Source: Marsupella aquatica
Lineage: Eukaryota; Plantae; Marchantiophyta
DNA length: 64,000 nucleotides
Assembly: GCA_973895155.1 (NCBI GenBank)
Contig: OZ316892.1
Coordinates: 26,993,233 to 27,057,232 of the forward strand
Reading direction: 5' to 3'
The notes below the pieces were generated by a model. It saw only the letters and a program-made list of their open reading frames with translations. It was not told the origin of the DNA and made no database searches. This document shows, in pieces, positions 1,053 through 52,555 of this stretch (position 1 is its first letter; every line of letters starts with the position of its first letter). The translations under genes were made by a program, and so were the position numbers.

Positions 1053-1074
1053 CACTACTACATATTTGCCAATT

Positions 1075-1600
1075 TTGCGAAGGCGTTTTACAAGAGGAAG
1101 AAAGCTTTGCAAGATTAATCTCATCGCTAAACTTGCGATCCGATACGCATCGCACTTAGCGAATCTACACACATCGCAACACATAATTGCGAAACTTAGA
1201 CCATCGCAACATTTTACGATACTTCAGGTATCGCAAAACATTTCCGAAGCAATTACCATTGAACAAGTTAGCGATCTTTACCGCTTCGCAAATTCATTGA
1301 GATGCGCCGGAAAACTAAATGGTTGCGAATATTGAAGCATCTCAAAAGATTTTGCGAGTCTTATTATCTCGCAAATGAGCGATGTTTGTGGAATATATGG
1401 CTAACTTGCGATAGTAATAGGCTCGCAAATCCTGTGCCTGTCTAGGGTCTCATTTTGTGAATGTTTTGGTTTCGCAACTTTGAGATGGTGGTATCTTCGG
1501 AAGTTTGCGATGAGGGAATGATGGCAATTAGGGAGCAGTTAAGTATCGCAAATGTAGCGATGAGTTTGCGGGTGTAGGGGTTTCGCAAGATGTTTCGCAA
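1075..1600. repeat. CACTA-1 left subterminal repeat array (TCGCAA/TTGCGA motifs in both orientations)
   Basis: Dense (T)TGCGA/TCGCA(A) motifs in otherwise CpG-poor DNA. Confidence 0.85.
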
Positions 1601-1619
1601 AATATTATGAGCGCTTCAA

Positions 1620-2260
1620 AGAGGTGGAAAAGGAATGGGATTGGGGAGGGAGGGTAAAGGAGGGTGGATACATGTAATTTTTAGGGAGGGACAATGAAAA
1701 GGAGGAGGAAGGGAATGGGGCTAGGAGGGACAAGGAACGGAGGGATCCAAGAGGGAGGATACAGGTTTAGGGGGCACAAGGAAATGAGGGAGGAGGAAGG
1801 GTATGTAGATATAGTTTTAGGGAGGGTTTGGATTTAGGGAGTGAAAATAAAAAGGAGGGAGTTTAGGGTTTAGAGAAGGACAAGGAAAGGAGGGAGGGTA
1901 TTGGTTTAGAGAGGGACAAGGAAATGAGGGAGGTTTAAGGGTATAGGTTTAGGAGGGAGGAGAGAAGCTAGGTTGTATAGGTAAGAGTGGGGGACAGGGG
2001 TGGAAAGTAAGGAAAGTATAGGGTTGAAATAGAAAGCCAGGGGTTGGGACAAGGAGAGGAAGGAGGAAGGAGGGTTTAATAAGAGGGACAGACAATGAAA
2101 GAAAGGAGGAGGGAGGTGGGTACAAGTAATAAGGAGAACAGCTAGGGGGGGATTAGGAAAGCATGGAGGATAGAGGACTACAAGCAACATGAGTTTTCTT
2201 TGCATAAAGTCTACCAAAAGGTGTGGTGAGTGTGGGGTAGGGATGGGAGATATAGAAAAC
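1620..2260 (+). repeat. Purine (G/A)-rich low-complexity tract
   Basis: Degenerate GGAGGGAGG/GGACAAGGAA repeats downstream of the transposase stop. Confidence 0.7.
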
Positions 2261-2407
2261 AACATTTGAAAATGATATACTTACAAAACATAAGTTTATT
2301 GATAATTGAGAAGCACATATTTCTCCATTCTACCGAGAAGAGAAATCTTCATATCATCAAATCTAACTATATATCCGTGTAGCTATATATCCACAAACAC
2401 AGACCCC

Positions 2408-5400
2408 TCAAACTTGGTCCTCATCATCTTCAGGTTGGGACACAACCAGAATATCAGGCTTTTCCCCAACGATTGAACGAGACCGTGGCACATATGTGAT
2501 GACAAGTGACCATTCCTCTAGGTTTGGGGGGTATGGAATATAGAAACATTGTTCCACATGACTTGGAAAAGTGAACGGCTCTGATGTTTGCCAATGAGAT
2601 GGCTGGAAACTAGTGGCAGACGTCTTCAGTCGTGTAAATCCACACTCATCTTGAACCACAGTAGGATTGTTACCTGCAAGGTTCACTTTGAACCACTTGC
2701 ACTTGAAGACATACTCTTCAAACTTTGATTGTGCATCATAAGATATCACTAGAATCTCTTCTACCTTTCCATAATGTGGCACAACATCTCGAATAATATT
2801 TGTGTCATGGCGACTGCTGCGGGAATCTTGAGAGAATTGTCCTTGAACTCCACAATCAAAGGTACGACCCCTCTTCTCATCAAGGGAAGAAATCCTAAAA
2901 TCCATCAAACCATAAGGATATGTTACACAAAAATAGACACAAACATATTCCAATTAATTGAACACACCAAGAATCTGCCTCTTCAATATACGTGCTTGTA
3001 TTACAAATGAATTAAATTAAACCAAGTGATTCAAATCAAAGGTTACTAAGGTAGATGGAGATCACCTGAAATGTCTTCCTTGTGTCCACATTGTTGTCCT
3101 TGTTGTAACCACTCTCAAGGGACCATGAACAATGGTACGAACATCATCTGTGATAGCCGGAAAATGTAATACACTCTCTCCCCTGACCACCATGTCATCC
3201 ACCTCAACTAACTTCTCCTTCATATAGTCAAGGTACTTTGGAAAAATCCTTGGTCTTGTGCTGTTACTTTTGGCATCCTCATAGAAATCCCTCCATTCTT
3301 CCATGATAGTGCTGTTACTCAACATGAATGTGGTCAGTTGTTTCACCTCCACTGGTGTCAACATGCGAGTTTTCTTAGCACCTGTTAAACAATCCTCTTC
3401 ATCTTCCCTCTCCTCTACCCAAGTACGGGGAGAGGTACAATCAATTGTGGCCAATATGTTACTACAATAGAACATACTCTCAGCTGCTAAGTATCCTGTA
3501 GCCATGCTTCCCTCAACCAGTGCACGGTTACGTACATAACCTTTTAACACTGCCATGTATCGTTCTAGCCAATACATCCACCGACAATGCACAGGACCTG
3601 CAATGGCCACCTCATGAACAAGATGAACAAGTAAATGCACTTGACAGTCAAAAAAGGAAGGAGGAAGGGCCTTCTCCAACTTGCATACCACCTCTACTGC
3701 CAAAACCTCCATCCCAGGGATCTCATCAGTATATATCTCCTTACAGCATACCCATCTCAATAGTTTTCCCAATGACCAAAGGGCATCTTGCAATTCTTCA
3801 CTTGCCAAACCTATTATGGCCACAGGCAATATGTGCTGCAATAACCTATGGTAGTCATGTGTCTTGAGATACCTTGGCCACTTATGATTGTCCTCCATCC
3901 CAAAGGCCTTTCAGAGATTGGCACCATAACCAGTAGGAAACCGCATGTCTCCTATGCGATTCTGAAACTCCCTTCTCTGGCCAATAGGAAGCACCCATGG
4001 AGCTGAAGGTCGATGCTCGATCCCTGTGATAGGATCACTTATGACCCACACGTCTGGATGCATCTCAAGATCCTCACAAGCCTCCCTGAAGTTAGTGTCT
4101 TTCTCTCCATAGAAAGCCTTTATCAAAGCCTTTCCCACATTTCCCTCAATGTGCATGGGGTCTAATAGATGGCGGATCTTCAACTCACCCCAATAGGGCA
4201 AAGTGGTTAATATACTCCACCTTGTCAAGCCACTACCGTCAAATTGCATGGGATCCTTTGGGTCTGCCACTCTTGCAGCCATGTCTTTCCAGTGTGTAAA
4301 AGTTGTTGGCTCAGGTACATCACGCTCGTCACCAAAGGGCATATCAATAGAGGAAAATAGTAGTGGGTCACGCCTCATCTGATGTCCCACTGGAAGAAAC
4401 TTTGTATGCCCAAGATAAACAATCTTGCGAAGATGTGATGAATACTTGGCTACATCACCAAGGCTTGGGCCACAAGTGGAGCAAGCCTTGTAGCCTTGGG
4501 TTTGCAACCCACTCACAAAGCCAAATCCTGGTCATATAAACACACATTATGTTAGGATTAGCACATGGAAATGAGGGGATACTATGCATTAGAATATGAT
4601 GCATTTAAACAACAAAGTTCTTACCTGGGTAGTCATGCATGGTCCACATACAAACCCCTTTGAGTTTGAAAACCCGTGGGGTACCCCCTGTAGTCTTTCG
4701 ACCATCATATGCCCATACTCCTTCCCATAATATCTGGAGTTCCTGAACCAGTAATGTCAAATAGGTGTCCATGTTCTTCACCTTCTTTGGCCCTGGGATA
4801 ATCAAAGATAGCAACAAAAAACCCTTTTTCATGGACAACCATGGTGGAAGGTTGTAATTCATGAGAACCACAGGCCAGACCGATGTAGGTCTCCCCTTCC
4901 CTCCAAGTGAATGAGGGCTAACTCCATCTGATGCCAACCCCAGTCGCACATGCCGAGGGTCACGCTCAAAATCTGGCCATGTTGATTCCACATGTTTATG
5001 AGCAGGAGAGTCAACTGGTAATCGCATGACACCGGGCTCCGAACGATGTTTCTTGTGCCATACCATCAACTCGGCCAAGTCAGAACATCTATACATGTGC
5101 AACAAGCGAGGAATTATGGGGAACCAACGAACTGCTTTCCTTGGTACTTTCTGGGTTAGCATGTTTGGCTCATACCGTGGCTCATGACACACTGTGCATT
5201 CTGTGATATGGGCTGTATCCCCGTGAAATAACATGCAATCATTCACACAGGCATGAATAATATGGTAATCCATACCAATGGATGAGAGAACCTTCTTTGC
5301 ATCCTTCCAGGTCCCTGGCAACACATTCTCCGAGGGTAACATCAAGTCATGACAATATTCAAATATGTCTGATAACATAGAATTGCTTGTCTTGTGTTTG

Positions 5401-5801
5401 GCTTGAATGTTCAAGAGCCCCAATATGGCAGAAAGACGGCTCAACCGAGCACCCTCAAAAATAGGTGTTCGAGCATGTTCCTCTGCCTCTTTCCATTGTT
5501 GTTGTCCCTCTGGAGTATGTTGTGGCCGTGGGTCATTTGAAGGGCCAACCTCATGACCAATGTGAGGCACATCATCCTCAACATCGGCACCAAACCAATC
5601 AACCATGAAGTCATCCATGGCTCTATCTTGATCATGCATGACCTGGTCATCAGTCCGAGGTGCGGCTTCCTCATCAGCACCACCTACATCATTACTTGAT
5701 GAGGAATCACCCTCTGATGGTTCTCCCTCTTCTGGCATACCCATCTCCCGATATGTTGCTCTCAACCTTCGTGGTAACATTTGTTGAGATGGTTGCGCAT
5801 T
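2408..5801 (-). pseudogene. tnpD: CACTA-1 TnpD-like transposase (Transposase_21/DUF4218/DUF4216-type); predicted exons 5801-4625, 4527-3066, 2894-2408; one in-frame TGA at 3911-3913
   Basis: Motifs IHACVNDCMLF, LGLASDGVSP, YNLPPW, WTMHDYPG, LDPMHIEGNV, LKTHDYH, FFDCQVHLLVHL, WMYWLERYM, FKCKWF. GT-AG boundaries keep the frame. Confidence 0.93.
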
Positions 5802-6012
5802 CTATGCACATTACAACCAAAAAACCTCCTCATGTATATTTGACCAAGTACAACAAATTAAAATAGACTTAACACCATTCATTCAAGACATTAAGAATTA
5901 AAGTAAATGCATGGGCTAAAACCTTATTACTCCAAAATGAGCCCAAAGGCCATATATATAATAGTAAATGGGAAGTCCAAAATAGGTGCAAGAGGATAAA
6001 GGACATGATTTC

Positions 6013-6843
6013 CTAATCCCACTCATAGTGTGTGAATAACTCATCTCCTGCTCTAATGGTCCTAGTAGCAAGAACTAAGCAATGGTCCTTATGATATGTC
6101 GTGCCATATGGTGCCGGCATTGGACCATCAGTAAAAACCCACTCACAATTGGCCCTACGCTTGGGCCGAGTCCCCACAGTACTATTTATGAAACCAGCAA
6201 TATTCCCATTACGTATGGGATCACCATCTATCACCCGCTGCTCACTATACCTTCTAGTGCTACCATCAAAAGTATCCATCTCTAGAGCATATGTTTTCCA
6301 CTCAGGATGTTGTGCAAGGATCATGTTCCAATGTCTTCTCTTGTAGATGGGTCCACCGTATGGGAACAAAGTAGGACCCTCTCTACCACGAACACTTGAC
6401 CCACCCTCCTCATCCATGATGATATCCTCACAAGCAAATACTCCATATCCATGTCTCTCTCCAAGTGTGGAAGTTTTCACAATCCAACGTCTACCCCAAA
6501 CCACAATCTCCTCATCAAAATCTGTAAAATAAGGCAAGCCAAGAGTGATAGGTTCCCAATCCTTGATGATAGAGGCACACTTGCCAGTGAATGAACAAAC
6601 ACCCCACCTACCCTGAACTAGTGTTCTGGATGGGTCATTGGGTGCTCGTGGCCTCCTGTTGGATTGGGGCCTAGACCGGGGTCTTCGTGTCTCAGTGGGC
6701 ACATGAGGGTGTTCCCCTTCTGTCCCATGACTGGTACTAATTCCCAAACCCAAGGCTTGTGAAAGTGCATTGCCTATAGCATCTAAAACTCCTTGTGATG
6801 GGACATAGGGTGGTGGTGTCACCAATCTACGCATACTGGATCC
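6013..6843 (-). CDS. SET-domain protein exon (putative lysine methyltransferase) carried by CACTA-1
   Basis: Intact 273-aa ORF with SET motifs GYGVFA..DI, YGG, IDG...GNIAGFINS, ANC, LATRTIRAGDELFTHY. Acceptor AG at 6845-6844. Confidence 0.88.
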   Translation of the reverse strand, partial: GSSMRRLVTPPPYVPSQGVLDAIGNALSQALGLGISTSHGTEGEHPHVPTETRRPRSRPQSNRRPRAPNDPSRTLVQGRWGVCSFTGKCASIIKDWEPITLGLPYFTDFDEEIVVWGRRWIVKTSTLGERHGYGVFACEDIIMDEEGGSSVRGREGPTLFPYGGPIYKRRHWNMILAQHPEWKTYALEMDTFDGSTRRYSEQRVIDGDPIRNGNIAGFINSTVGTRPKRRANCEWVFTDGPMPAPYGTTYHKDHCLVLATRTIRAGDELFTHYEWD

Positions 6844-6954
6844 CTATTCCATGCAAACACCCACAAACAACCAAATGTGTAAACCATATGTGTAAACATT
6901 GATTCACCTCTAAAAATAACAGTAAAGCACGGCAATCAATTGAAACAAACTTAC

Positions 6955-7212
6955 CATATGGGATGAAGAAGCCCCGGGAGTAAGACCTCTATGATGTCCA
7001 TATCTCTCAATATGTTGAGCACACACATAAGATTTTTGAGAAATTTGGCCCACACATCTGGTGCAGTCACAAAGTCTTCGGGGTGGACCACGAGGACCAG
7101 TAACCTCGGGCTGAGGAGGAGGGGGTATATCGTTATCGGAGGAGTACTCACTACTGGATAGTTCAGAGGAAGAGGACATATCCACTGCCACATTACATTG
7201 CATGTAGGGCAT
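6955..7212 (-). CDS. First coding exon with transposase-associated CxCxxC...H zinc motif
   Basis: RLCDCTRC...CAQHIERYG matches the N-terminal motif of the other two CACTA transposases here (MYCSCMQC...QHLLKNG). Phase-0 donor ATG|GTAAGT at 6954. Confidence 0.75.
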
Positions 7213-7299
7213 GATTAGGAAAAATTAGGCCATATATAAAGCGATTTTAAAAAAAATGAACTCAAAAAACAATTAGGTTGGTTTATACATGGGGTTTTA

Positions 7300-8340
7300 T
7301 TACCCTTTTATATTTGTTAGCATGAAACCCAAATTAAGGTGAGTGTCATGCAAGAAGAAACCACATTATAACCTTTGGGAAAATTGTAATACCCTATGTC
7401 CTAAGTGAGGTTAGATTATTACCTGAATGAGACTCGGGCTCAACAGTGCCTATAGGTCACGTGGCTTTTGGAACATTTGCCAAATCTAGAAGTAGGAGGA
7501 AAATACTGGAAACAAAATGTAAGTTTGGATGGTAATTAGCAGCCGTCAAGTTGTGGAATCTTAGACATTTACCCACATATATCATAGCACAACAAAGAAG
7601 GGCAAGCATAAAAATCTGTACTAACAACATTGACTGTATACATGATGTTATACCTTTTAGATGCCCGGGTTCCCACAATGCATATGCATTAGACAAAAGT
7701 TGAGGTAGTAGTGTTGGCCCTGCGTTGTATCATGATTACATGGGTTTTCCCCTCAATTGTTAGCATAAAACCCTAAACCCTAAACCCTTATCCCCCCTCG
7801 AGTGAAAGGTGAGTGTCATGCAATAAAAACCCACCCTAGACCCCTGGGAAAACTCTAAAGGCCTAAGCCCAGAATGAAGTTGGACAATAATTACCTGAAT
7901 GAGATCCAGACTCAATAGTGCCTGTAGGTCGTGTGGCTCATTGAACATGAGCTGAATCTAGAAGCACGAGGAAAATACTGGAAACAAAAAAGTAAGTTTG
8001 GATAGCCATTAGCTTCTCTCAAGTTGTAGACCCCCAAACATGTGCATATAGATATTCTTGCACAACAAAGAAGGGCAAGGTTTATGAACAATCTCTTTAT
8101 CAAACCCTGCTAACATACATGTTTAAATATACCTTTTAGATGTCCGGGTTCCCACAATGCATATGCATTAGACAAAAGTTGAGGAAGCAGTGATGGTCCT
8201 GCACTGGATCATGATTACATGGGATTTCCCTCAATTGTTAGCATAAAAACCAAAACCTCATCCCGCTTCAAGTGAAAGGTGAGTGTCATGCAATAAAAAC
8301 CCACCATAGACCCTTGGGAACTCTAAAAGCGTAAGCCAAT
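7300..8340. repeat. ~470-bp tandem duplication (~2.2 copies) in the divergent promoter region of CACTA-1, with a telo-box (AAACCCT)x3 near 7768-7788
   Basis: GGTGAGTGTCATGCAA recurs at 7338, 7808 and 8278; blocks such as GGGTTCCCACAATGCATATGCATTAGACAAAAGTTGAGG occur twice. Confidence 0.85.
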
Positions 8341-9019
8341 GAAGTTAGCAAAAACCTAAATGGTCAATTCCCTTCAACCATCCTATGCTTCTCTCTACCA
8401 TAATTATATGCCACCCCTCTTGGTTACCCTCCTAAGATACCATAAAAGTAACCCAAGATACTATAAAACTGAAACCTCTCTTTCAAACCCTCCTAGCTCT
8501 CACCCTCCAATACATATAACCGCAACCTTCATAAATAAAACCCCCCTGCAAACCCAAAACATAAAACCCCTCGTATCTAAGCCAATCTAAGCCCAACCTT
8601 CACAAAAGAAACCCTCCCCTAACCAGGCCAAACCCCCTCCTCTTACCCTGCAATATAACTCCTTCAATTTTCTAACCCCCCCAATCCTTATCTCATCACA
8701 TCCCACTAAAATGCAACATAATCCTCTACATCTACCCCATTTAATGTTCATAAGCCCCCTTAGTATCCCTAACAACACATCAAATACGCATGCGAGACGG
8801 GGGTTATGGCAAAACCAAATAGCGAAGGCTTTTGCGAATCTTGAAGCTTCGCAAAGATAGAATTTGCGAAGCTTTTTGCGAAGGCCGATGCATCGCAAAC
8901 TGCGATGCGAAACGAATCGCAAAGCCCAATATTTTGAATCCTTATGGATTGCCGAGCGCGGACAAGGCGGATTCAGTTCATTCAGGCCTAAGGAGAGCAA
9001 CGAGGGCAAGGGCGGAGCG

Positions 9020-11112
9020 ATGGCGAGCGAAGAGGGGACTGGTGGTGATGGAGGAGCTTCTGGCAGCAGTGGAGGCAACCGAGGGGGGGGGGATCGATTG
9101 AAGGCGATTGTGGATGAGCATTTTTTGGTTGCACAGTTGAGTCAAATTGATTTCACCAGTCCAGCAGGGCTGGCATCATTGAGTGCCCTTCTGGGCCAAG
9201 CCTTGCAAGCAGGTCTCACTGCAGGGCAAGCAACAGTGGAGGAGGATGCAAGGAAGGCAGCAGAACAGGCGGCTGCTGAGAGGAAGCGAAAGAGGGAAGA
9301 GAGAGCTCAGGCTGGAGTGCTCTCGCCTCAAGCATTGGAAAAGAAGAGGAGGAAAGATGAGAGAGACCTGATCAGGAAACAGAGGGAGGAGCAAAGAAAG
9401 AAGGAGGCAGCAAGGAGGAAGCTGCCTCTGATTACTTTAGAGGATGAGGGGATTCCCACCGAGCTTGCTTACAATGGGGCCAAGAGCACAATCAGGCACA
9501 TTGTATCCACAAATTTTGCAAGAGGAGTCGAGTGGGGCACTCGCTCAAAGGCAGAGCAGAAGCGAGTCATCAATCAGGTGAAAGATGCATTTCAAAATGG
9601 AGGAGAGATGGATTCACAGTGACTTGCTGACAAAATTTCAAACTCCATGTCACAAGCTAGATACCATGATAGAATGAAGATCAGGTCTCACCTTAGAGAT
9701 TTGGAGGAGTATAGGAATTTGCAGAGGCCGCTGCAATTCTCAGAAGATATCTGGCAGGCCTTCTACCAGACAGAGGTGAAGTTGAAAGCAGCCAGGCTCC
9801 TCAATGATTTCACAGAGAAGCTGGCAAAGGCTCGAAGGGCAAAGGAGGCCGGGAAGTCTGACCGGGACCTAAAGGTGATGGAGCAGAAGGTAGCCCAGCT
9901 CCAGCAGGTTGTAGCAGAAGTAGGCGATCCACCCAACAAGTTCCTGAAGGCAGCTGAGCGAGTCCGAGACAAACCCAACATCACCCACAGGCTGGGTCAA
10001 GGTGGCCTCCCCGGCCTCAAAGCAGCATTCGTGAGTGCACCTCCCTCTCCTCCCTTGACTTCTTGCTACTCCAATTCCTATTCCAACACACCTGCAATGA
10101 GCCAACTCTTTCTTGCATTTCCACCAAGTAGTTACAATTAGACTTGTTGTGTCAGATTAGGTCACGTACAGTTGCTTCCCTCTCGGGTTTTTGCCATGAC
10201 AGAGTTTGCGATACATTTGCGATGCGGGTAGCTTCGCAAATCCTTCGCAAACCTTATTATGCCCTTTTTTTGCTTATGTTTGCGAAGGCGTTGCGAAGAC
10301 GTTCGCATCGCAACCAGCTTCGCAAACGTAATTGTCCTTATGATTGCGAAGCTGGCGCCTTCGCAAAATTTCAAAAATTTGAATTTTTAAATTTTCCGAT
10401 CGTTTAAGTGTTCTTTGAGGGTCTTCCCCATATATGCCACCCTCCATAACCCCAAAACCTTGATGCACCACCCCACCAGCCCCAACAAACCCCCTAATTT
10501 TTAGAAGCCATGTGAATCGGGTTATGGGTTGGTGTTAACCCAATTGTGCTGGTTTTGTTTTGGCTTAGTACAAGAGGTACAAGAGGAAGATTATGGCGGC
10601 TGAGATGGAGGTGGGCCAGAAACATGGGAAGGAGCATCTCTTTCAGCAAGTTGATGAATTATTGGTGAGAATTTTTAGGTTATTACATTCATTGCAATTT
10701 TGAATGAATATCTCTTTTGTTCACACTTGTAAAGAATATGAGACTAACAGACACCCTGGTTTGCTAATGGAAGCAAGGAGGGGAGGATGGTGACTCCCAT
10801 ACCGAGGGTGGCACCGATAGTAGTGATGAGGATGTGGAGGGGACAGGGGAGGGGAGCACAGCTCCTGCTACTCAAGCTAGGCCAACTAGCACTAGAGACC
10901 AGTCATTTGCATCAGCACATTCCAGTGGTGCTGGGGGTGGTAGCGCGGCAAGCCAGGGCGGTGGAGGTGGGGATGAGGATGAGGATGAGGGTGACCCCGA
11001 GGGTGACCAAGAGGAGGAGGAAGTCCAGGTTGCACCCCCCCCAAGAGCACACAAGGGCAAGGAGAAGGCCAAGGGGAAGAAGGCAAGGAGGGGCAGGAAC
11101 ACTCCTTTCTAG
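9020..11112 (+). pseudogene. CACTA-1 ORF2 / TnpA-like protein, multi-exon, divergent from the transposase; premature TGA at 9620-9622
   Basis: ORFs 8864-9622 and 9647-10141 are in the same frame across one TGA. THRLGQGG motif resembles Transposase_24-type proteins. Donor GTGAGT at 10031; acidic/basic tail 10834-11112. Confidence 0.65.
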
Positions 11113-11364
11113 CTCGATGTAGACAAGTTGTAGCTAGAGCACTTACATCGAGTTCACATGTATAGCGATCAGCATGCATGGCCGTGGCACTTTACCTAAG
11201 GGTTTTTACCCTTCCATTTTGTAACTTTTGTACTTTTTCAGTAATGCCATTTTAATTGCGGCAGACTGGGTCAACATCACTTTCCTCCCTCCTTCAAAAC
11301 CCATGAATGGTCTCCCTCACCCTCACCCTAACCCAAATACACAAAAACCCATGAAATATACATT

Positions 11365-11880
11365 TTGCGAAGCTTTTGAGAACCAACCCCCATCTCAAAG
11401 AGCCACGGTGAACGTATCGCAACCATTCCGAGGAGAAACGCATCGCAACACTTGCGATGTTGTCTAAATCACAACCCTAGCGAAGACTTACTCTCCACAC
11501 GTTTGCGAGTTAAATGCCTTCGCAACAAAGCGGTCATCCGCTTCTCGCAATCTTACGAGTTTGTTTGCATCGCAAGTTATAGAGAAATTTAACATCGGAA
11601 ATTGCGATGTAAATGTTATCGCAACGCGAGCGATTCATTTGTTCTCGCAAAATAATGAAATTTGTCATTTCTCAATATTTGCAAGGACAGTGCCGTCGCA
11701 ACGTTGCGGAGATGTTGCGACGTATTTAGAATCGCAAGTTGTGAAGTAGTTGCGAAGGGCCGTTTGCGAAGAATTTGAGATGGGAAGTAGCGAAGACGTT
11801 GCGATGCGAGTAAGTTTGCAAATTGGGTATTTTGGATTTTGTTTCCTTTGTATGATGCGAAGGGTGGTGGTTCGCAAAAG
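11365..11880. repeat. CACTA-1 right subterminal TCGCA/TGCGA array
   Basis: Same motif as 1075-1600, directly before the right TIR. Confidence 0.85.
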
Positions 11881-11900
11881 AGGTGCATAGTGTTGTAGTG

Positions 11901-13150
11901 CATGGAGGTCAGTCAACGAAGAAGAAGACAAGTACTTGATCGAGAGGCCATTTTGGGAACATCAAAAGCGCTCAAGGGCAAAGGAGTGAACAATGGGGAA
12001 GAAGCAAGAAGACCAAGAGAAGAGGAGAGGAAAGAAAGTTATGTTGATGACCTATCAAAGCTCATGGAAGGATTAAAAATCCTAAGCACACAAGTGATGG
12101 GGCCGAAAAACAACTTGTGACAAGGAGGGAGCTCGAGTCGAGGCAGTACTTGGGGTTGTATGTGGTGTGATAACAAAGATCATGCTAGAAGGGATTGTAG
12201 GGAATTTTCTGAAACACTCAGAAAACAACATGTAAAGTTTTTTGGTGAAGCTGGCATGAAAAAGATTGCATACTTTGATTCTGGAGAACCTGTGCCACTC
12301 AATGGCAACAAAGGAGGTATGAAGGCATTGGTGGAAAAAAGGTTAGCTGAGCAAGATGTAAGTATGGTAGCAGCAACATATGAGCCAAATGTCTATGCAG
12401 CTCAGAGACATGAAGACCTTGCAGCAAATTTGTCTTTACTCAATAAGAAAAGATTAGCTGAGCATGTTCGACGTCAAACAGGATGGGATGTACCTGTTCA
12501 CATCACGGCTATCACAACTGAAGTAGGAGCAGCTTGGGATGTTACAGTGGAAGACAAACACAAGGCTGCAGAAGAGGCAAGAAAAGAATCTCGACAAAAA
12601 CAGCAAAGGATAAACGAAGAATCCAAAAGGAAGACTGTGCGTTTCAAACCAACAAAAGGATCAAGCTCCAGTCCCGGCTCAAGCAAAGAGTCATATGGAA
12701 ATAGTTCTGGACCTGAGGGGCTAGTTAGTAAGAAGAAGCAAGGAAACAAGGGTCCTGGTTGGGTGCTAGGCCGAGATGTCGAGAGAGATCTTGATCCAGA
12801 AGCATTGGCCAACAAATTTTGGAAGCAAGAAGTACGGGGTTTCACTAACGAAGAGTTTTTTGGCTGTCTAAGGAGGGATGTTCAAGAAATAGTATTAGCC
12901 AAGGCTAAGAAGAAGAGATTCTACAAGGAGGGTCCACATGCCTTGGCTGGATCAATCTCAGAAGATTCAGATGAAGACATGGAGGGAAGAGAGAGTTACT
13001 TAACACAAATCTTGGAGCAAGAGGATGGAGCAGATCCAGAGGAGCATGAAGAGTGGGTGCAAGTCTATGATGCTAGTTTTGAAGATGTCAACACATCTCT
13101 TGGATGGGAGACAAGACAAGAAGAAGCAACAAAAGCTTATTGGGCAAGAG
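11901..13150 (+). pseudogene. gag: gag continuation with CCHC zinc knuckle; stop at 12118-12120
   Basis: CMWCDNKDHARRDC = CX2CX4HX4C, in frame with the N-terminal gag after CACTA-1 removal. Confidence 0.88.
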
Positions 13151-21727: not shown

Positions 21728-21894
21728 CGTCTAATTTGCATTCCTCATATTGCAAGATGGATCAAAAGAGCCCACAGGGAAGTGATGCCCCTGGTGGAGG
21801 CTACTGGCTGTGATTGCTGGTGGACTGTTGCTCCTTCTGGTACATCACATGCCTGTCCCTATTTTTGAAGGTAATTTTGCAGATCTTGTTCAGC

Positions 21895-22590
21895 ATGGCA
21901 CACATCGCTCGTCAGTTGCTGGATCCAAGATTTGGGCATAGGGAGCACCTTTGTATGGATCCCCCTTGTTGTTTTGAATGTGACGAGGGAGGAACTGTTT
22001 TGTTCTGTGATGGCCCTTGTGGTCGCCATTTTCATTATATAGTTGATGGCCACAACCCTGATGAAGAAGATGGCCATGGACCTACATGTCAGCGCATTGT
22101 CATTTCCAGAGGTCATGATTGGGCTGCAGCTTGGCTCTGTGATCTCAGTCAGCAAAACAGAGGAAGATGTTTTGGTTGTGGGCTCCTTGGCAGAACCTTG
22201 AGACCCAGCACAGATGAGCCCCTTGTGGTCCAGTGTTCTCATGATGATTGCTACTCATTTTACCATGTGGGTTGCCTCCGGACACTTCTGCGATTGGGGG
22301 AAATGCCATTCACCCGCCATCGAGATAACCCTGATGCACATCCCGATGCTTTTATATGCCCACGACATTACTGTGAGGTCTGTAAGGAGTATCGGGAGGG
22401 CATTTGGGACTTTGTCCAATGTTGTAGATGCCCTCGTGCATGGTGTCGTGATGAAGGACCAACAGCAGACAGACACTTGAGGAGAGGGGTGAGGGGCCGA
22501 GACACCTGGGACATTGGATAGTGGCACATGATTTATTGTAATCGCCATGTCATTCTAGAGGGTTCTGATATCCCTAGTACCCATGACTAG
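21895..22590 (+). pseudogene. EDM2/NSD-type multi-PHD finger protein (copy A); TAG at 22519-22521 near the C-terminus
   Basis: CFECDEGG...CDGPCGRHFH; CFGCGLLG...QCSHDDCYSFYHVGCL; FICPRHYCEVC...QCCRCPRAW; IYCNRH after the stop. Confidence 0.85.
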
Positions 22591-22912
22591 ACACATCATG
22601 ACTGCTACAAATTCCATCTTACAAACTTCAACCTTTTTTGTAGTGGACCCATAAGACAACCTAAATTATATGAACTTAAGTATTTGGTTGAATGCTATGG
22701 ACTTAAGTATTTCGATGAATGAAAGGGACCTAAGTATTTGGTTGAACAAAATGGAATTTTGATGAATTGAAATGGACTACAATAGATTGAGTGTTCAGAT
22801 GACATTGTGAATGGTTGACTTGAGTCCTGATCTTTTTCCATGTCTATCCATTGTTGTATGACAGGTTCATCTACCTAATCCCTCTCCCTCACAGCCTGTA
22901 TAACTGTCCATC

Positions 22913-25900
22913 ATGGCACACCTAGGCATGAGCTCTGTCAGATTGGTAGAAAAGGGTGAGGAGGGAGGAAAGCCTGATATGCCAATCTGTGTCATGTCCT
23001 TCAAAGAAGGGCAGACTCTGGCAGATTTTTGTCTAAAATGTGTTGGTGCAGTAGAGTTTGACTTTGATTTTGGGGATGAGAGGTTGTCTGGTCGAGTCCG
23101 GCGCTTTTTAGAGAAGACTGTTGGGGTGACTGAACTTCAAGGGACAATTTACGTGATTGCAGAGTTACCCTCAATTGCCTTGCCTGCGGAGAGGGTCACT
23201 ATTGGTTCCTCTCATTCATCTGCTGCCATTGTGTCCAATGTGGCAGGCACGACTCTATTGTCTCAAGGACAAACACAAGGGGTGCCAGTACAGGCTATTG
23301 TACAGCCTGTCACGGGCTCCTTTGAGTCTCACCTCATATCTGAGGCTGCATCAAAGGCTTGGAATGATGAGTGGGTGGAGCTACAATCCTGGGTAAACCA
23401 GAAGGGCTTTGGTGAGCACAAGTGGAAAGTGCGGACGTGGGATGAGGGAGGGGAGTGTCAAGGTCATCTAGAATGCTTAGAGTGTAGGGAGACTTATGGG
23501 AATGCAGCCACTTCACAGGTGCTCAAGTCCATTGCAAATTGCTTTAGCAACTTCAAGACAAAGCACCTGACCAACCCTAAACACAAGGAGAACTGGTGTA
23601 AGCGAAGGGGTTTAGCTGGAGCTTTGGTGACGGCTGCTGACACTATACAGCAACCACTGTTTGATCATAGTATGCAAATAGGGGCTGGTGTGGAAATAGT
23701 GGGAAAGTTGAATGCAGAGGTAGGTGGGGTGGTAGAAGTGTTCTCTATCACACCATCTCCCACTGATCCAACATTTGCACAGAGGTCATTCCTGTCTAAG
23801 GTGAGATGTACAGTCTGTGGTGAGCTACATACTGACATGTGCCTTAAGAAATCCAATTTGGAACACAATTTAAGGCAACATCTTGTCAGTCGGGATCATA
23901 TGGATGCACTTGAGAACGTCGTCACCAGTACCCAGGCTGCACTGAGGGCAAGGAAGAAGGGGAGACCAAGGAAGCCTGATGCTCGTGATCTGTTTCCATC
24001 TCAAAATTCTATTATGAATTTCTTTAGAGAGGACAACTCTGCTGCAAGGAGCAGTTCAGGCAGAGGTGGGTTGTATTCCTCCATTGAGCCAAGTTTAAGT
24101 TTGCTTTGTTGGGGCTATGGGAGTCAGAGGTCAAGTGGACAGGGGATTCTATGGCTGTGAAGGGCATACTTGATGATCAAGAGGGAGGGAATGTCTGGGA
24201 CTGTGACCGTACCACCCGTGCTGAGGTTTTCAATATAACTAGCCAATTAGTTGTTGGTATACAGGATTGTTTTAGGCACAAGCAATGTCACAGGGTGTCC
24301 ATTAATGGAGGTGGTTTTCAAAACCTCACTTGCACTCTATGTGATTCTATAAAACGTGAAGATGATTTTCGTGGCAGGGTGCACAGGGAAGCGAAAGCAT
24401 TAGTGCAGAGAGGAGACAGGACTACACAGGGTGGGATGAGGTTGGCATACTTGACCAAAACCGAACTGAGGGAATAGGTTGGTAACCTCAACACTCGCTT
24501 TAGGAAACAGCGTTGGCTGTTGGCACAACAGGCTCAGAAAATTTGTGCCTTGAGTGTTAGGCGAAAGAAGCTAGAAGATTTATTAGGAGTAGCCCATGAT
24601 AGGAAAGATTTAAGACTGTTTCTGAGAAATATTGTGAATGGACATAGGCATGGTGCTTTTGGTGGCAAGGAAGGGTTGTGGGATTTCCTGACAGATGTAG
24701 CTAAGAACTTGCAGAGAGTTGCTAAGGGTTATCAATACAGTAAGAGAACCAAGGCCTTTTCCCAAGCCATGTTCTAGTTTGGAGGTAGACAAGTGGCTCA
24801 TTGTTTCCAGGAAGATCTAGGTGGTCCAGGTCTGAAGACCTTAAAATGTGATAGAGCAAAACTACCACCCTTTAGAGCTGGCATTCAAAAAGAGATATTC
24901 CAGGAGGTGTGCAGAGTACTATGTGCATCAAAGCAGTCACTTGGAATTTCAGGAGATGTACCAGTAATGTTTGCTGAGGATGAAACAAGGATAAAAGAGA
25001 GACCCAGGTTTGTGTTTTTGTCTCTATAGTAAATTAGCTTGTTCTTTTCAATGTGTTGGATGAGTTTGCACGTCATGAGCTGATGTCTGTATTGTATTGT
25101 GTGTAACAGATGGGAAGCTAAATATGACACCCTCATTGGTTTCTGTGGCCCCTTAGAGGAGCACACATGTTCTTTTGGCTTGGAAGTATTGGTTGGAGTA
25201 GGTACTGAAGGGTATGACAAGATTGTAAGTACTTTTGAGCAGTATGCCAAAGACATGTATGCTAGAGTAATCATTGTCAATCTTGAGCTGCATGCAAAGA
25301 TGCCTAAATTGGCATTGTGTGTTGTACCAACATGTAACAAGTTTAAAGCTCCCTGGGTAAGAGAGCATTGGGTGCAGCTAAAGTCCATGTGGGACACACA
25401 TTGTAGAGACAGTGTTGGTCCTTTGTTGGGCCATGCTAGTGATGGTGATGCTCATCGTAGGAAATTGATGATGGAAGATTATACTGCTATGAATGTTTCC
25501 TTTCCTAGGTACAGTGTAGGATGGGTTGGGTGGCAATACTCAGTGTCCATACTTTCGAATGGAGATTTATATGGTTTTGGAGACCAAGACCCACCTCACA
25601 ATGGCAAAAAGGCAATTAACCCATTAGACCGAGTGTTTGCTATGTTAGTCCTTGGTGATCAGCATGCATCTTTGTCAAATGTCACATCTGTTTATAACCA
25701 CTATGCAATTCATGAGCATGGTTTGCATTGGGATGATGTGAATAGGACAGATAGACAAAATTGGGCTGGCCCACAACGAATAGCTTCCAGGAGAGTGCAA
25801 GCCTGCCTGCAGCATATGTATGAGCAATGAGATGTTTGTCATGACAGAAGCTTTGGGACCATGATATACTTGGAGGTTTGTGCAGACTACATGGATATTT

Positions 25901-27513
25901 TCTTCTCTGTTAAGTATGACCTAAGAACCCGTGTTGTCTTGGCATCAAAGGTATCTTGGTTCTTCCGATTGTGGAGGCTATGGTTGAGGTATGGTGATCA
26001 TTCTGTGATAGGGAATGTTGGATCTATCACAGAGAAGAACGTGATTTTTGTGTAGGCTTTCCATGATATCAACATGTCTTGTCATTTTGTAGTATTGTTA
26101 ATCTGTGCCTTTTGGGACAAGTTCCCATATCTGCAAGTTCCATTTCACTTGCTGGGATCAGATTGTTGTGAGATATTTTTCAGCAAGGTAGGTGGCATGA
26201 GTGGCCATGAGAGAAATGATGACTTTGGATCTCTACTGGATAGTGCATAGTGCAGTGAGACTGAATCGACTAGCTGGATTAGAGTATGGACCAGAGGGAT
26301 TGAAGATACGTCGATCACATGATAAACAAGATCATGTTTGGGCAACTTTACATCCTCTGGATGAAGGAGAACAAGCTCCAAATTTATTTGATTACTCTGC
26401 AGTTCAGACTAATGATCTGGTTGTTGATGCTCTAAAGGAAGGTTTGGGGGAAGCAAAGGATTTGTTGTGCAAGTTGAACATGTCACCAAGGAGTTCTTTG
26501 CCAGCAGCGAAAAGACGATGGTGGGTTCATCCTTGGGAGGTGGAGGCAGAGACTTGGCCAGATACAAGTGTCATGAAAGAGGCTGTGTTATGTGATGATG
26601 CTGAAGACATAGTTGAGCATCGACCTACTGTAGGCCCTAGACCTGAGCCCCCAATTAGAGAGTTTCTAGAGTTTGATGATCCTGAAGAAGATCTCAATCG
26701 GATTGATTCATGGGACACTCTGGACAGTCATGATTGTATTGAGCCATTAACAGTTGATGATTGTGAGATTGAGGTGGACACTGACCCATTTTGTGAGATG
26801 GAAACACTAGGACATGAAGTAAGGCATGTCTTGGCTGGAGTTCAAGCAGACTTAACTGATGTACAGACACCCCGGTCAGTGGTGTCTACTGTAACTTATG
26901 AGGGAAGGACTATCTACAAGTCCACTCTTGTTAGTCAATTGTGCTGCAATCCTTTCATGTCAAAGGATCTAGGCTAACTAGGATAGCCCAGAAGACCTAT
27001 TACACTACTGGTAAGGAGAAGAAAAATGGTGACTCTGTGACTTGTTTGGTTGACATTGGTACTGATATAGCAGTTTTGTTTGAGTCTGCTGCAGAGGTTG
27101 GTCCTTCTACCAAATTATCCAAGTCAAAGAAGAGGAAGGGAAGAGATAAGGCGTCTACTGTTGTCAAGGCACTATCTGCAAAGAAGGAATATTGGTTGGG
27201 TAGGATTGAGTTTATGATACAGAAGAATGGCTCCCATTGGGTCAGACGTCAAAAAGCAATAGATCTGTTGGACAGGCCTGTACCTGCAGTTGGATAGAGT
27301 GGAAGTGTGTGCCGCTTGCAATGTAATTGGTACAAATCTATTGGTAACAACAAAACTTTGTTCACTTATGATGCAATGGATGGACAATGGATTGATATTG
27401 AGATGGTAATTTCAAATGTGAACTTGACTATGAAGTCTGGGGTAGTTGACAGAGTATGTACTAGATCCAAATGACTTGCAGGCTTTGACCACATACATTC
27501 AGAGTGTGAGTAA
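22913..27513 (+). pseudogene. P-element/THAP9-like DDE transposase with N-terminal C2H2-type fingers and AT-hook; several stops and frameshifts; intron 25008-25109
   Basis: Ordered motifs FAEDETRI (24970-24993), HASDG (~25432-25446), DPPHNGKKAINPL (from 25588), DRQN (25750), GSDCCEIFFSKVG (from 26155) match the P-superfamily pattern FDE / SD(G) / DxxHxxKxxRN / QDxxExxF. Confidence 0.75.
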
Positions 27514-30384: not shown

Positions 30385-33300
30385 GTCATTTTTTTCAATA
30401 TATTATTCATGTTATTTGCAAAGGATTCCCAATCATTTTTGCTCTCATTCAACTTTCTAGTCATTTGACAAGTGCCGCTAGATGTCATTTATGCAAATGT
30501 CATTTGGGATGTCAATGTTGTGGTCATGTATGCCATGCAGAATATGACTCTTAAGAGCCTTTGGTGGCTGATTGACCCCATTGGTGATAGGGGCCGGCCA
30601 TTAAGGATGATACCCACTTCACATGGTGCAGGATAGGGTACTTGACAACCCTGGGCCACTGGTTATACCATTTGGCCTCCACAACACTTTTTAAAATACA
30701 CATTTTGCATCATGGAAGGGCATCACCCAACTTTGGGCAAAACACTTCCAAGTTGTATGACTTTGGAGTCATTTGCCCAAAGGGGTGCAAACCACTATTG
30801 TGAGTCATTGGCAAGGGATCTAGAGTCATTTGTGCATGTGACTAAGGGTTTGTGTCATTTACGGAGTGTTGGGAGACGTCATTCATGCAAATGACACAAA
30901 AATAGGTCATTCATGATGTCACTATTGCAATCATGCATGCCATGGACAATATGGCTCTTTGGGGCCTCCGGGGGTCGATTGGCCATATCCATGATTGTAG
31001 CCCACCATTAGGGATGCTACCCACTCCACATGGTGCGGGGTAGGGTACACCTAAACTCTGGGCCACTAGTTATCTCAATTTGGCCTCGCAATAGTTTTTA
31101 TGACCCAACTTTTTCACCTTGGAAGGGCATGGCCCAACTTTGGGCAAAACACTCCCAAGTTGTATGACTTTGGAGTCATTTGCCCAAAGGGGTGCAAACC
31201 ACTCGCATTTTGTCATTTGCAAGGGATATAGAGTCATTTGTGCGCTTGACTAACGGTTTTTGTCATTTGTGGAGTGCCGAGGGGTGTCATTTAAGCAAAT
31301 GACACAAAAATAAGTCATTGATGATGTCAAGGCGGCAGTCAAGCATGCCATGGACAATATGACTCCTTGGGGCCTTTGGGGGCTTATTCGCAATATACGT
31401 GATTGTAGCCGGCCATTAGGGATGCTACCCACTCCACATGGTGCGGGATGGGGTACTTGTACACCCTGAGCCACTAGTTATGCCACTTGGCCTCCACAAC
31501 ACTTTTTAAAACACACATTTTGCATCATGGAAGGGCATCACCCAACTTTGGGCAAAACATTCCCAAGTTGTATGACTTTGGAGTCATTTGCCTAAAGGGG
31601 TGCAAATCATTCTAATTTGGTCACTTGCAAGGGATCTTGAGTCATTTGTGCGTCTGACTAAAGGTTTTTGTCATTTGTGGAGTGCCGAGGGGTGTCATTT
31701 AAGTAAATGACACAAATATGAGTCATCAATGATGTCAAGGCGGCAGTCAAGCATGCCATGGACAATATGACTCCTTGGGGCCTTTGGGGCTTATTCGCAA
31801 TATCTGTGATCGCAGCTGGCCATTAGGGATGCTACCCACTCCACATGGTGCGGGATGGGGTACTTGTACACCCTGAGCCACTAGTTATGCCACTTGGCCT
31901 CCACAACACTTTTTTAAGCACACATTTTACATCATGGAAGGGCATCACCCAACTTTGGGCAAAACACCCTTAAGTTGTATGACTTTGGAGTCATTTGCCC
32001 AAAGGGGTGCAAATCATTCTAATTTGGTCATTTGCAAGGGATCTTGAGTCATTTGTGCGCGTGACTAAGGGTTTGTGTCATTTAGGGAGTGTTGGGAGAC
32101 GTCATTCATGTAAATGACACAAAAATAGGTCATTCATGATGTCAATGTTGCAGTCATGCATGCCATGGACAATATGACTCTTTGGGGCCTCCGCGGGTTG
32201 ACTGGCCATATCCATGATTGTAGCCCACCATTAGGGATGCTACCCACTCCACATGGTGTGGTATAGGGTACTCGACAACCCTGGGCCACTAGTTATACCA
32301 CTTGGCCTCCACAAAGCTTTTTAAAACACACATTTTGCACCTTGGAAGAGCATCACCCAACTTTGGACAAAACACTCCCAAGTTGTATGACTTTGGAGTC
32401 ATTTGCCCAAAGGGGTGCAAACCACTATTGCTTGGTCATTTGGAAAGGATTTAGAGTCATTTGTGCGCATGACTAAGGATTTGCGTCATTTTGGGAGTGC
32501 CGAGAGACGTCATTCGTGCAAATGACACAAAACTCAGTCATTCATGATGTTAATGTTGCAGTCATGCATGCCATGGACAATATGACTCTTTGGGGATTCC
32601 GCGGGTTGACTGGCCATATCCATGATTGTAGCCCACTATTAGGGATGCTACCCACTCCACATGGTGTGGTATAGGGTACTCGACAACCCTGGGCCACTAG
32701 TTATACCACTTGGCCTCCACAAAGCTTTTTAAAACACACATTTTGCACCTTGGAAGAGCATCACCCAACTTTGGACAAAACACTCCTAAGTTGTATGACT
32801 TTGGAGTCATTTGCCCAAAGGGGTGCAAAACACTATTGCTTGGTCATTTGGAAAGGATTTAGAGTCATTTGTGCGCATGACTAAGGGTTTGCGTCATTTT
32901 GGGAGTGCCGAGAGACGTCATTCGTGCAAATGACACAAAACTCAGTCATTCATGATGTCAATGTTGCAGTCATGCATGCCATGGACAATATGACTCTTTG
33001 GGGATTCCGCGGGTTGACTGGCCATATCCATGATTGTAGCCCACCATTAGGGATGCTACCCACTCCACATGGTGTGGTATAGGGTACTCGACAACCCTGG
33101 GCCACTAGTTATACCACTTGGCCTCCACAAAGCTTTTTAAAACACACATTTTGCACCTTGGAAGAGCATCACCCAACTTTGGACAAAACACTCCCAAGTT
33201 GTATGACTTTGGAGTCATTTGCCCAAAGGGTTGCAAACCACTATTGCTTGGTCATTTGGAAAGGATTTAGAGTCATTTGTGCGCATGACTAAGGGTTTGC

Positions 33301-33960
33301 GTCATTTTGGGAGTGCCGAGAGACGTCATTCGTGCAAATGACACAAAACTCAGTCATTCATGATGTCAATGTTGCAGTCATGCATGCCATGCGTAATATG
33401 ACTTGTTTGGGCCTTTGGGGGCTGATTGACAATATTTGTGATTGTAGCCGGCCATTAGGGATGCTACCCACTCCACATGGTGCGGGATAGGATATTCTTC
33501 AACCCTCGACCACTAGTTATGCCACTTTGTCTCCTAAAGGTTTTTTGTAGCCAACTTTTTGCACCAAGGAAGGACTATGAGATTCTTTGGGCAAAACACT
33601 CCCACATTGTACGACTCAGTAGTCATTTACCTAAAGTGGTCCATATCACTCCCATTTGGTCATTCCCAAGGGATTCCGAGTCATTTTCAAAGTGAGTGCA
33701 CTTTTTGGTCATTTGTGGAGTCCTATAATACGTCATTTATGCATTTGACATGAAAATGAGTCATTGTTGATGTCAATTCGGCAGTCACGCATGCCATGGA
33801 CAATATGACTCTTTGGGGGCTTGGACGCTGATTGGTCATATTGGTAATAGGAACCCACCATTGAGGATGCTTCCCGCAAAGAATGTATTGCATTTGGCAA
33901 TTATGGAGTGCCGTGAGTTTAGGTTTTGGGCAATGACATGAAAACAAGTCATTTATGTTG
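30385..33960 (+). repeat. 408-bp tandem array, ~8.5 copies, inside CACTA-2
   Basis: CCCACT(C/T)CACATGGTG at 30613, 31020, 31428, 31835, 32243, 32651, 33059, 33467 (spacing 407-408). Confidence 0.96.
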
Positions 33961-34820: not shown

Positions 34821-36856
34821 GTTTTAGGGTGAAGGAGCTGAGGTCCGCTGCGCCTAATTTGTGATCACATTGTGAGTTCCCTTACGGACTTGGAACTCCT
34901 CACAGGTGCCCTTACTTACTGCCACCATTCAGTTCATGAGCTCGAGTCGTGGTGACAATTTTTGAGCCCATTTCTGAGTAGAGGATCAAACATTGGGTTA
35001 CGAAGTGGGTGCATTGAAGCTCCATTTGAGGTGTGGTTGTGTTGGAGTTGGAGCTACAGACAAAGATTAGGTCCTGAGCAGCAGTCGCAAACAATTGAGG
35101 AGCACAGGACGTGATACGAGGTGGGGGCCGCTTCATTTCATTGCTGTGGTAGTTGGCATATTACTTGCGCCTTGGCTACCTCGTTTTTCTTTTTGGCATC
35201 GACTGTTATTGCTCTGAGTTCTCTCTCTGTTTTGCTTCAAAGCTCTGTCCATTTTGTGGTGCCTCGCTTGTACAGCAGGAGAGTTCCTTGTATAGCAGGC
35301 TCAGGGACTGCGACTGTCTTTCATTGTGTGTTGTGTTATGGGCTGCAAGGTGAGAACTGCGCTCCACATTGGCGAGGACGGGATCCCTTTCTTTCAGTTT
35401 CAGTGAAGGGCCAAGCTGCAATTGAAACGCCTTTACCTGCTGCCATTTAAACCGCTTTGAGCTCCTTGAAGCTTGGGTTATCAGGTAAGAGTATGGATCT
35501 ACATTGCCCTTATTTGTTGTCCTCTTTGAATATGTACATAGCTCTACCCGATGGGGAGTATGACTGTACACTCAGCTAGAACCAAGGCAAGTGGTTGCAA
35601 TAGTGAATGAATGCTACTATCGGCCACACAAATGAATTCATTCAAGTTGAATGTTTGAGACATTCTCTAAAGTTTTACGGACTTTGCTTATATAACCCGG
35701 CGTTTGCTCTTCCGTAAGCTTTGACTGTTTATTATTGTGCGACGTGAGATTGTATGAAGGTGGGAGCTGCACTCCACACTGGCAAGGACCAGAAGGTTTT
35801 TTTCAGTTTCCAGTGAACGACAGAGCTGCAACTAAGGTAGAGCTGTGCTACATTCTACCAAGGCAGACATTGGACCTGCAAGTTTCAGTTTGAGTGAAGG
35901 ACAGAGCAACTCAGGTACAAGCAAGCTGCTAGTTCGATTAACTGAGTTGCAAGCAACTTCCAACATTCAGTGAGACTGCGAGTGATTGGAGCTACGACAA
36001 GAGCTGCGATCAACGTGGGCGGACATTGGACCTACATTGGACATTGTGTCCCCATCAGTAGAGTGCACAAATCCTGCTAATTTGCATTTTGGTCCTGGCC
36101 TGGCTTGCTTTGTGGTCCTATGCACTGTGCATCCTTTGTGTCTCCATGGAATATCAAATAGTTACATAGTTTGGTTCTTGTCTCTGCTCTGAGTACAGTG
36201 CTGTGCATTATTGTTTCATCGAGCTCCTCAAGACAGTACCAATTTGTAGAGCAGCATGTAATGCTAGGTTTGAACACCAAGGACCAAGTAGTTTTTACAG
36301 AGTCTCGGGTACAAAGCCAATGTATGGAGAGGTCAAAGGCATGAGGATTTTTCTTTAGTACAGAGTTCTTGGGATCTACAAATAATGCTTGTACATGGAC
36401 AAAGTATTTCTCTATAGATTTGTTTTTAGTCTGCCTGACTGCAGCCACTTTGTTGTCCTTCCATTCCACTCCAATGTTTGTAATTTTCTCAATCTATTGA
36501 GCCTGTCAACTCAATTGCTGCTACTTTGTTTATTTTCAACAACTTTGATAGAACACAAATTAAATAGATAGCCAGTGTGAGTCAACAAATTTTCAGAGAG
36601 TAAATCCATCCCTAGATTTTATCTCAAAGAACCATGTTTAACTTTTTGCTCTTTGTGCAGAGCACGCAAGAAGCATTGCCAAGTTATTGTACTCCGTGAA
36701 ACTTAGGTGGGCAGGACATCTGTTGATTTGGACTTTTTGCTCTCTCACGGTAAGTACACTACACACACGCTCTTCTTGTTTGTGTCTTGCCCCTCTCCAT
36801 AAACTTCTTGTAATATTCACTTAGGTAATTGTGCAGATCCACACATCACATCGGGC

Positions 36857-52415: not shown

Positions 52416-52555
52416 GTAGATTCACAGTCACACCCCACGCAGCAGGAAACAACAATCACTTCAACTGCGACCAACCATGACAAGATGAGTTAGTTCAAGG
52501 ATCACATTTATTACAAAATTGTGTTTTATACAAAAATATGAGGGACTCCTACTCC

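Follow-up and report, generated by a model that had tools for sequence, protein, structure and literature searches.

A SET-domain exon lies inside the first intron of the transposase gene of a CACTA (En/Spm) element in the window, the 64-kb stretch of DNA analysed here as a whole, and comparison with relatives shows that this exon is a selected accessory module of a bryophyte CACTA lineage, neither a passenger nor a nested insertion. Judging from the reading frames and splice sites, it is highly probable that exon 1 of the transposase is spliced to either of two acceptors, with the SET isoform ending in the spacer that separates the two. Our preferred overall reading, to which we give modest preference, is that one transcript would yield both a zinc-motif–SET protein, a predicted lysine methyltransferase probably acting on chromatin, and the TnpD transposase, to the benefit of the element. 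Joining the exon 1 donor to the near acceptor at 6843 would produce a protein of 362 aa terminating within the SET exon, the 3' end of its transcript lying in the 211-nt spacer; joining it to the far acceptor at 5801 would skip SET and produce the 1127-aa TnpD. As the two isoforms would exclude each other, the amount of modifier relative to transposase would depend on which acceptor is used.

The element and its exon layout

The features of the element are given below in window positions.

1053..11900, minus strand: whole CACTA (En/Spm) element, 10.85 kb, delimited by its termini and target duplication
1053..1600, no strand: left terminus and subterminal T(T/A)GCGA cluster (16 and 5 motifs per 500-bp bin)
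2408..2894, minus strand: TnpD exon 4 (PF13952)
3066..4527, minus strand: TnpD exon 3 (PF02992, PF13960), carrying a private stop at 3913-3911
4625..5801, minus strand: TnpD exon 2 (PF02992), with a conserved acceptor
5802..6012, minus strand: spacer of 211 nt, predicted to serve the SET isoform as 3' UTR and poly(A) region and TnpD as the 3' end of its long intron
6013..6843, minus strand: SET exon, 276 codons and a stop (PF00856), predicted alternative last exon
6844..6954, minus strand: intron 1a, 111 nt, GT-AG; its retention runs into a stop
6955..7212, minus strand: exon 1, 86 codons, with a Ser-rich start, the CxCxxC...H transposase-associated motif and a phase-0 donor
7213..9019, no strand: region between the two divergent genes, presumed promoter, containing a tandem duplication of ~480 bp and, near 8800-8920, a motif cluster
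9020..11112, plus strand: ORF2, divergent accessory gene; first exon 9020-10030, later exons predicted, private stop at 9620-9622
11370..11900, no strand: right terminus and subterminal motif cluster, from motif counts

Four features of CACTA membership (termini, 3-bp duplication, Tnp2/TnpD domains and subterminal repeats) were found. The ends read CACTAC...GTAGTG in inverted orientation, with nine of the first ten terminal bases matching, and are flanked by the duplication CAT at 1050-1052 and 11901-11903. Joined across the empty site, the flanks form a single open gag-like frame; the element thus appears to sit in the gag frame of an LTR retrotransposon, labelled Gypsy-type from its pol-like ORFs. 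The T(T/A)GCGA motif clusters at 5-16 copies per 500 bp, against a background of 0.2 per 500 bp in the 13-64 kb part of the window, and does so at both element ends, near 8800-8920 (just upstream of ORF2) and near 10200-10370 (in the first intron of ORF2). The same clusters near or within ORF2 occur in relatives, which suggests autoregulation by an element protein. The tandem duplication, upstream of exon 1, spans 7415-8230. ORF2 itself is 65% identical to its relatives and gave no Pfam, PDB or profile match. We considered it as a candidate TnpA, an identity that was not confirmed, the gene being conserved but without a family match; its position alone hints at a TnpA-like role.

The original prediction placed a minus-strand exon with a phase-0 donor at 7212-6955 and two acceptors in frame with it, and these coordinates and phases are correct. 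The exon is 258 nt long and ends ATG/GTAAGT (the slash marks the junction); from the acceptor at 6843 (AATAG/GGA) the frame formed with exon 1 is open for 362 aa to a stop at 6015-6013, and the acceptor at 5801 (GCATAG/AAT) is also in frame with exon 1. A four-exon GT-AG model of TnpD (7212-6955, 5801-4625, 4527-3066 and 2894-2408) comprises 1127 codons with one internal stop (codon 684, 3913-3911), and its three Pfam domains, PF02992, PF13960 and PF13952, all score above cut-off. Exon 1 has no direct Pfam match, and a profile built from ten exon-1 homologs matches, at E 3e-7, the N-terminus of a neighbouring CACTA TnpD in which the motif is contiguous with the transposase and matches PF13963. 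Because of this match to a contiguous N-terminus, we regard exon 1 as TnpD's own N-terminus; as exon 1 would then carry the usual TnpD N-terminal Cys/His motif, a full TnpD requires that SET be skipped. None of the 15 phase-0 GT sites in the SET exon resembles the donor consensus, and the SET stop is conserved among relatives. Polyadenylation of the SET isoform presumably takes place within the 211-nt spacer. Near window position 3928, six loci (L011, L014, L015, L023, L025 and L028) carry a ~150-nt TnpD intron that the window copy lacks, apparently a precise intron loss or gain.

Several other features of the window deserve mention. It holds two more CACTA transposases, at 39239-43042 (+) and 48691-51393 (-); in the former the Cys/His motif is contiguous with TnpD and there is no SET exon, making it a natural control. 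ORFs with NSD-type PHD fingers lie at 21814-22521 (+), 36803-37486 (+) and 54003-54710 (-), with PF22908 above cut-off in two of them, and two of the three precede other CACTA transposases, so chromatin-reader cargo may be carried by further elements of this genome. A twin BRCT ORF at 52556-53419 (-, E 7e-14) is found between a PHD ORF and the third CACTA transposase, and a weak F-box-like ORF at 51846-52421 (E 0.08). The first PHD ORF is followed at 22904-27297 (+) by large ORFs with zinc-finger-like motifs and no Pfam match, possibly another transposon type. A 408-bp unit containing a palindrome is repeated 8-9 times in an array at 30500-33900, and a ribosomal protein L18a-like fragment at 59958-60326 (+) is probably a pseudogene.

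Conservation, selection and spread of the SET exon

We compared this copy with sister sequence, that is, with contigs of five related sequencing runs (X1-X5), in which contig depth does not equal copy number. The original prediction had set the intact SET frame against the stops in tnpD and ORF2; the stops are present, but the contrast is uninformative, as the stops are private and SET often stays open by chance. The TnpD stop is missing from 1243 of 1274 depth units of X1, 3618 of 3713 of X3 and 9647 of 11722 of X4 (about 97% for X1 and X3, 82% for X4), and in X5, from a different organism, the TnpD stop change is seen in 3575 of 29864 depth units. In X1, X2, X3 and X5 no depth at all carries the ORF2 stop. 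Both stops thus reflect decay of this copy alone. Over 3451 bases there are 15 majority positions at which X1 and the window disagree, and X1 may derive from the very sample that gave the window; the element appears young in its host, about 0.4% from sister sequence. When we simulated private transitions at 0.4-1%, the SET frame stayed open in 70-86% of cases, and an intact SET in one copy is for that reason uninformative alone. Single X1 contigs with a depth of about 600 span both the joint from exon 1 through the intron to SET (6748-7043) and that from the SET stop through the spacer to TnpD (5767-6041), so the exon 1–SET–TnpD layout is the family's main form. The run contigs cover the introns; neither splice junction is matched by any of the joints listed, which is what DNA reads should give.

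A metagenome scan recovered 33 loci from 268 candidate stretches; their junctions translate like those of Sphagnum gene models, and we take the loci to be Sphagnum-type. The retention of the SET exon in sister copies, on which the original prediction depended, is borne out by these loci and by gene models of Sphagnum, Calypogeia and Riccia. The transposase lies downstream of SET in 21 of the 22 loci with enough flank (11 were too short), and exon 1 lies upstream in 17 of 18 testable loci (15 of the 33 were not testable); the exceptions, L021 and L022, each hold a fragment of SET surrounded by unrelated DNA. Of the 17 loci carrying exon 1, 15 were examined for its donor, which is GT in 15 of 15; the SET acceptor is AG in 14 of 15 loci and the TnpD acceptor in 20 of 21. 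All three splice sites are conserved more than expected by chance, across a lineage about 30% diverged. Intron 1 measures 111-118 nt in relatives, and in the three lineages the first conserved codon lies 24, 18 or 12 nt from the acceptor. Between lineages, intron 1 (z 4.0) and the first 100 nt after the SET stop (z 4.6) are more alike than the two constitutive TnpD introns (z -0.6 and 0.3). This extra conservation could reflect signals for splicing or 3'-end formation, or else a more recent exchange of the module, which we consider because dS is lower in SET (0.65-0.82) than in TnpD (0.93-1.49). Public gene models in six Sphagnum species and in Calypogeia fissa join exon 1 to SET at the same junction, and five Riccia sorocarpa models and one Logan ORF (P0057, on a 2.1-kb contig) place a Cys motif before SET, with identities of about 30-40%; every relative with a species name is a bryophyte. 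The gene models could be ab initio predictions.

Nei-Gojobori estimates against 15 of the 33 loci, those with a near-complete and unshifted SET, gave dN/dS of 0.21-0.32 for the SET exon between lineages and 0.16-0.22 for its core (residues 106-276), with bootstrap upper bounds of at most 0.45. The corresponding values were 0.11-0.17 for TnpD, 0.20-0.29 for exon 1, and 0.28-0.40 for SET when L005 was compared with the main family; the loci belong mostly to one family, such that the test amounts to about two independent comparisons. Neutral evolution of the SET frame, which would have spoken against the original prediction, was not found; the frame is under purifying selection. Within the family, SET dN is close to dS (0.052 versus 0.060) and 8 of 15 copies have stops in SET, which is the decay expected after insertion; transposase copies carry stops too.

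A full HMMER scan returned 99 proteins at E 0.001 or better, and no host-type SDG gene was apparent among about half of them. No relative was found in viral and prokaryotic collections (0 of 50 and 0 of 85 candidate stretches), one of 22 family members matched PHROGs weakly, and the viral fold matches to SET were generic SETs at 22% identity or less. Besides clusters of the family itself, the ESM Atlas returned a phage SET cluster at 0.92, which is a lead only. The SET family is deep, with several diverged lineages within individual liverwort species. In our tree the window SET, a Sphagnum protein (P0001) and one Calypogeia protein (P0002) form a short-branched clade (100/98) far from Riccia. 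That moss and leafy-liverwort SETs lie closer to each other than to Riccia hints at a possible horizontal transfer; a single split between moss and liverwort rows is all that the unrooted tree requires. Very distant SET lineages with an NS motif and no post-SET region were also seen in Calypogeia (P0122, P0130) and in Logan contigs (P0109, P0116, P0121, P0124).

The SET domain and its putative activity

The SET exon passes the Pfam cut-off for PF00856 (27.1 bits versus 22.4, E 5.7e-6), and an AlphaFold model based on 36 sequences takes the SET fold with a pLDDT of 82.7. A single-sequence PDB search with SET gave no matches, and Foldseek gave 307 at E 0.001 or better. In a further fold search the top eight structures scored Z 11.9-10.9, with rmsd 2.3-3.0 over 120-134 residues to Set1, SET8, EZH2 and SET7/9; these matches tie across Set1, SET8, EZH2, SET7/9, NSD2 and LegAS4 and favour no histone-lysine class. 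In a comparison with the host SDG classes E(z), ASH1, TRX, SUVH and ATXR5/6, Pfam detected no pre-SET, AWS, SRA or post-SET domain in the window protein. The GxG motif, the motif-III Asn and the tyrosine of the C-terminal ELxxxY are present; across 36 sequences, down to 27% identity, G132, G134, G164 and D206-G207 are invariant, and N220, E268 and Y273 are at least 90% conserved. With these residues kept, we consider it reasonably probable that the domain binds SAM and methylates lysine.

The original prediction also observed that the canonical NH reads NS (FINS) and took this as grounds for doubt about activity. The substitution is there, but the doubt is weakened, since NS is the family norm and the active LegAS4 has NF. 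Motif III reads NS in 120 of 141 family motif matches and NH in none, and the NH(S/C)xxPN signature is absent; a profile aligns the motif to NH in MLL1 and to NF in LegAS4. LegAS4 is described as methylating H3K14, and as having a post-SET region and requiring its ankyrin repeats (PMC10653858). According to the review PMC3178901, five backbone atoms and a single Asn side chain hold SAM; the review also places post-SET regions in all SET methyltransferases and ties truncation to inactivity in PRDM constructs. Because LegAS4 is active with NF and SAM contacts are mostly with the backbone, NS alone does not imply a dead enzyme. The missing post-SET region appears to be the larger doubt: only three residues follow Tyr273 (family median 3, fewer than 10 in 89 of 112 members). 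A partner, a dimer or the family-specific extension that is folded in the AlphaFold model at residues 73-120 could act as a substitute. Two residues before the tyrosine, at what we take to be the Phe/Tyr switch, 110 of 112 members have Thr, Cys, Ala, Val, Ile or Ser, and a small residue here would leave room for multiple methylation. In a model of the exon 1–SET fusion, exon 1 is unfolded and of low confidence (pLDDT 30-50).

Whether the substrate would be a histone tail at element copies or insertion sites, with the effect of countering host silencing, is a proposal we hold with less than even confidence. The SET protein might reach its substrate through the N-terminal motif that it would have in common with TnpD, or through ORF2. 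The most specific version, in which a histone methyltransferase lineage lacking post-SET, alternative to the transposase by splicing and targeted by its zinc motif, lays down a mark that keeps the element active or prepares its targets, is rather unlikely in all its parts and is offered tentatively.

Alternative readings and comparison with known systems

If splicing proceeds as described, SET may still be a non-catalytic binder, a reader of histone tails or methyl-lysine or a scaffold, that tethers a complex or shields the element. We think this unlikely: the post-SET region is missing, NH is never present, and other elements in the window carry reader-type domains (NSD-type PHD, BRCT), but against it stand the invariance or near-invariance of GxG, Asn220 and Tyr273 over such divergence and the nature of the SAM contacts, mostly backbone plus one Asn (PMC3178901). 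Somewhat less probable still is an active methyltransferase with a non-histone substrate (TnpD, ORF2 or a host silencing protein) by which transposition would be tuned. The failure of any histone-class SET to match above the rest, the family-specific folded extension and the predicted co-expression from one unit agree with such a role, against which the top-ranked solved structures are almost all histone methyltransferases.

Other readings dispute the gene structure. SET and TnpD could be separate genes, each translated from its own early Met codon (at residue 4 in the SET exon and at residue 8 in TnpD exon 2, where relatives keep it), with exon 1 serving only one of them. Many ORF calls are 263-aa SET-only proteins, none of nine long proteins carrying exon 1 is a clean exon 1–TnpD gene model, and split-gene CACTAs are described in Arabidopsis (PMC13547354); a full TnpD of the SET-bearing family was likewise lacking among six longer relatives, none of them above 51% identity. 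We nevertheless judge separate genes improbable: both acceptors are conserved and in phase 0, L005 has a 6-nt indel before the Met that leaves the frame intact (a single event, with a one-in-three chance), the Calypogeia model P0002 lacks the early Met in its SET exon, TnpD would lose its usual N-terminal motif, and only 111 and 211 nt would be left for promoters. A single exon 1–SET–TnpD fusion, with SET spliced onward into the transposase, is very improbable; seven gene models do run from SET into transposase sequence, but their junctions are inconsistent and most truncate SET, and the window exon has a conserved stop and no consensus-like phase-0 donor. As for the idea that SET is a captured piece of host sequence or a separate nested insertion of no use to the element, the SET stops in relative copies and the within-family dN near dS would suit it, yet between-lineage dN/dS is far below 1, no host-type source gene emerged from the HMMER matches inspected, and no TIR or TSD of its own was found around the exon, as the original prediction anticipated; the conserved layout and purifying selection effectively rule it out.

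Were the histone-mark version described above as rather unlikely nonetheless true, the family would be a chromatin writer encoded by a land-plant transposon and governed by alternative splicing, and it may have moved horizontally between mosses and liverworts. The literature consulted notes that transposons can carry SET genes but gives no test of their role; a family that is compact (362 aa), abundant, young and present in both mosses and liverworts makes self-writing of histone marks by transposons testable, and a SET lineage without NH or post-SET is material for enzymology. Hundreds of annotated Sphagnum, Calypogeia and Riccia 'SET domain-containing proteins', in a cluster of 360 members, are likely to be transposon parts that inflate counts of host chromatin genes. 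H3K27me3 is described as preferring DNA transposons in bryophytes, in a report whose available text does not mention this family (PMC11982613).

The original prediction held that a SET methyltransferase is not a standard CACTA product. Its combination with a shared exon does appear to be unreported, but SET cargo as such is already described in Plavaka, a member of the EnSpm superfamily. SET-bearing DNA transposons and En/Spm alternative splicing are each published, and we found no paper on a SET exon in a land-plant CACTA, in a search whose reach excluded Repbase Reports, most subscription journals and bioRxiv supplements. SETMAR/Metnase, which we take to be a domesticated host fusion of SET and transposase in one gene, differs in that the window family is mobile and multi-copy, with SET and the catalytic core predicted in different isoforms.

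The closest system in structure is En/Spm itself: maize En/Spm and Arabidopsis EN/SPM3 and SPM7 are described as making TnpA and TnpD by alternative splicing (PMC13547354; bioRxiv 10.64898/2026.08.24.746577). The window element shares with them the CACTA ends, the 3-bp duplication, a Tnp2-family transposase, two predicted proteins per unit and subterminal clusters. Where they make the HTH protein TnpA, the window element is predicted to make a SET protein encoded by an alternative last exon within intron 1, and it has a separate divergent ORF2, at most a candidate TnpA. In cargo, it resembles the red algal Plavaka, whose PAG2 carries a SET domain (bioRxiv 10.1101/2025.02.11.637652). PAG2, compared here by its published description, is a separate accessory gene combining a DNA methylase domain (PF01555) with SET, whereas the window SET stands without a methylase partner and is predicted to have exon 1 in common with the transposase; PF01555 joined to SET was absent, and PF00856 was the only domain, in the window protein, P0001 and P0002. 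SET genes are also described in HarbingerS and oomycete MuDR elements (PMC12730594), and SET-carrying Helitrons are cited (PMC12730594; bioRxiv 10.1101/2025.02.11.637652, Bostrychia). These are likewise DNA transposons that keep a SET gene, for which counter-silencing has been proposed, but by their descriptions they belong to other superfamilies and hosts and carry SET as accessory genes. Anti-silencing is reported as demonstrated for the VANC proteins of VANDAL elements (PMC12730594; bioRxiv 10.1101/2025.02.11.637652), to which the window SET, with its conjectured anti-silencing role, offers a functional analogy rather than a claim of homology.
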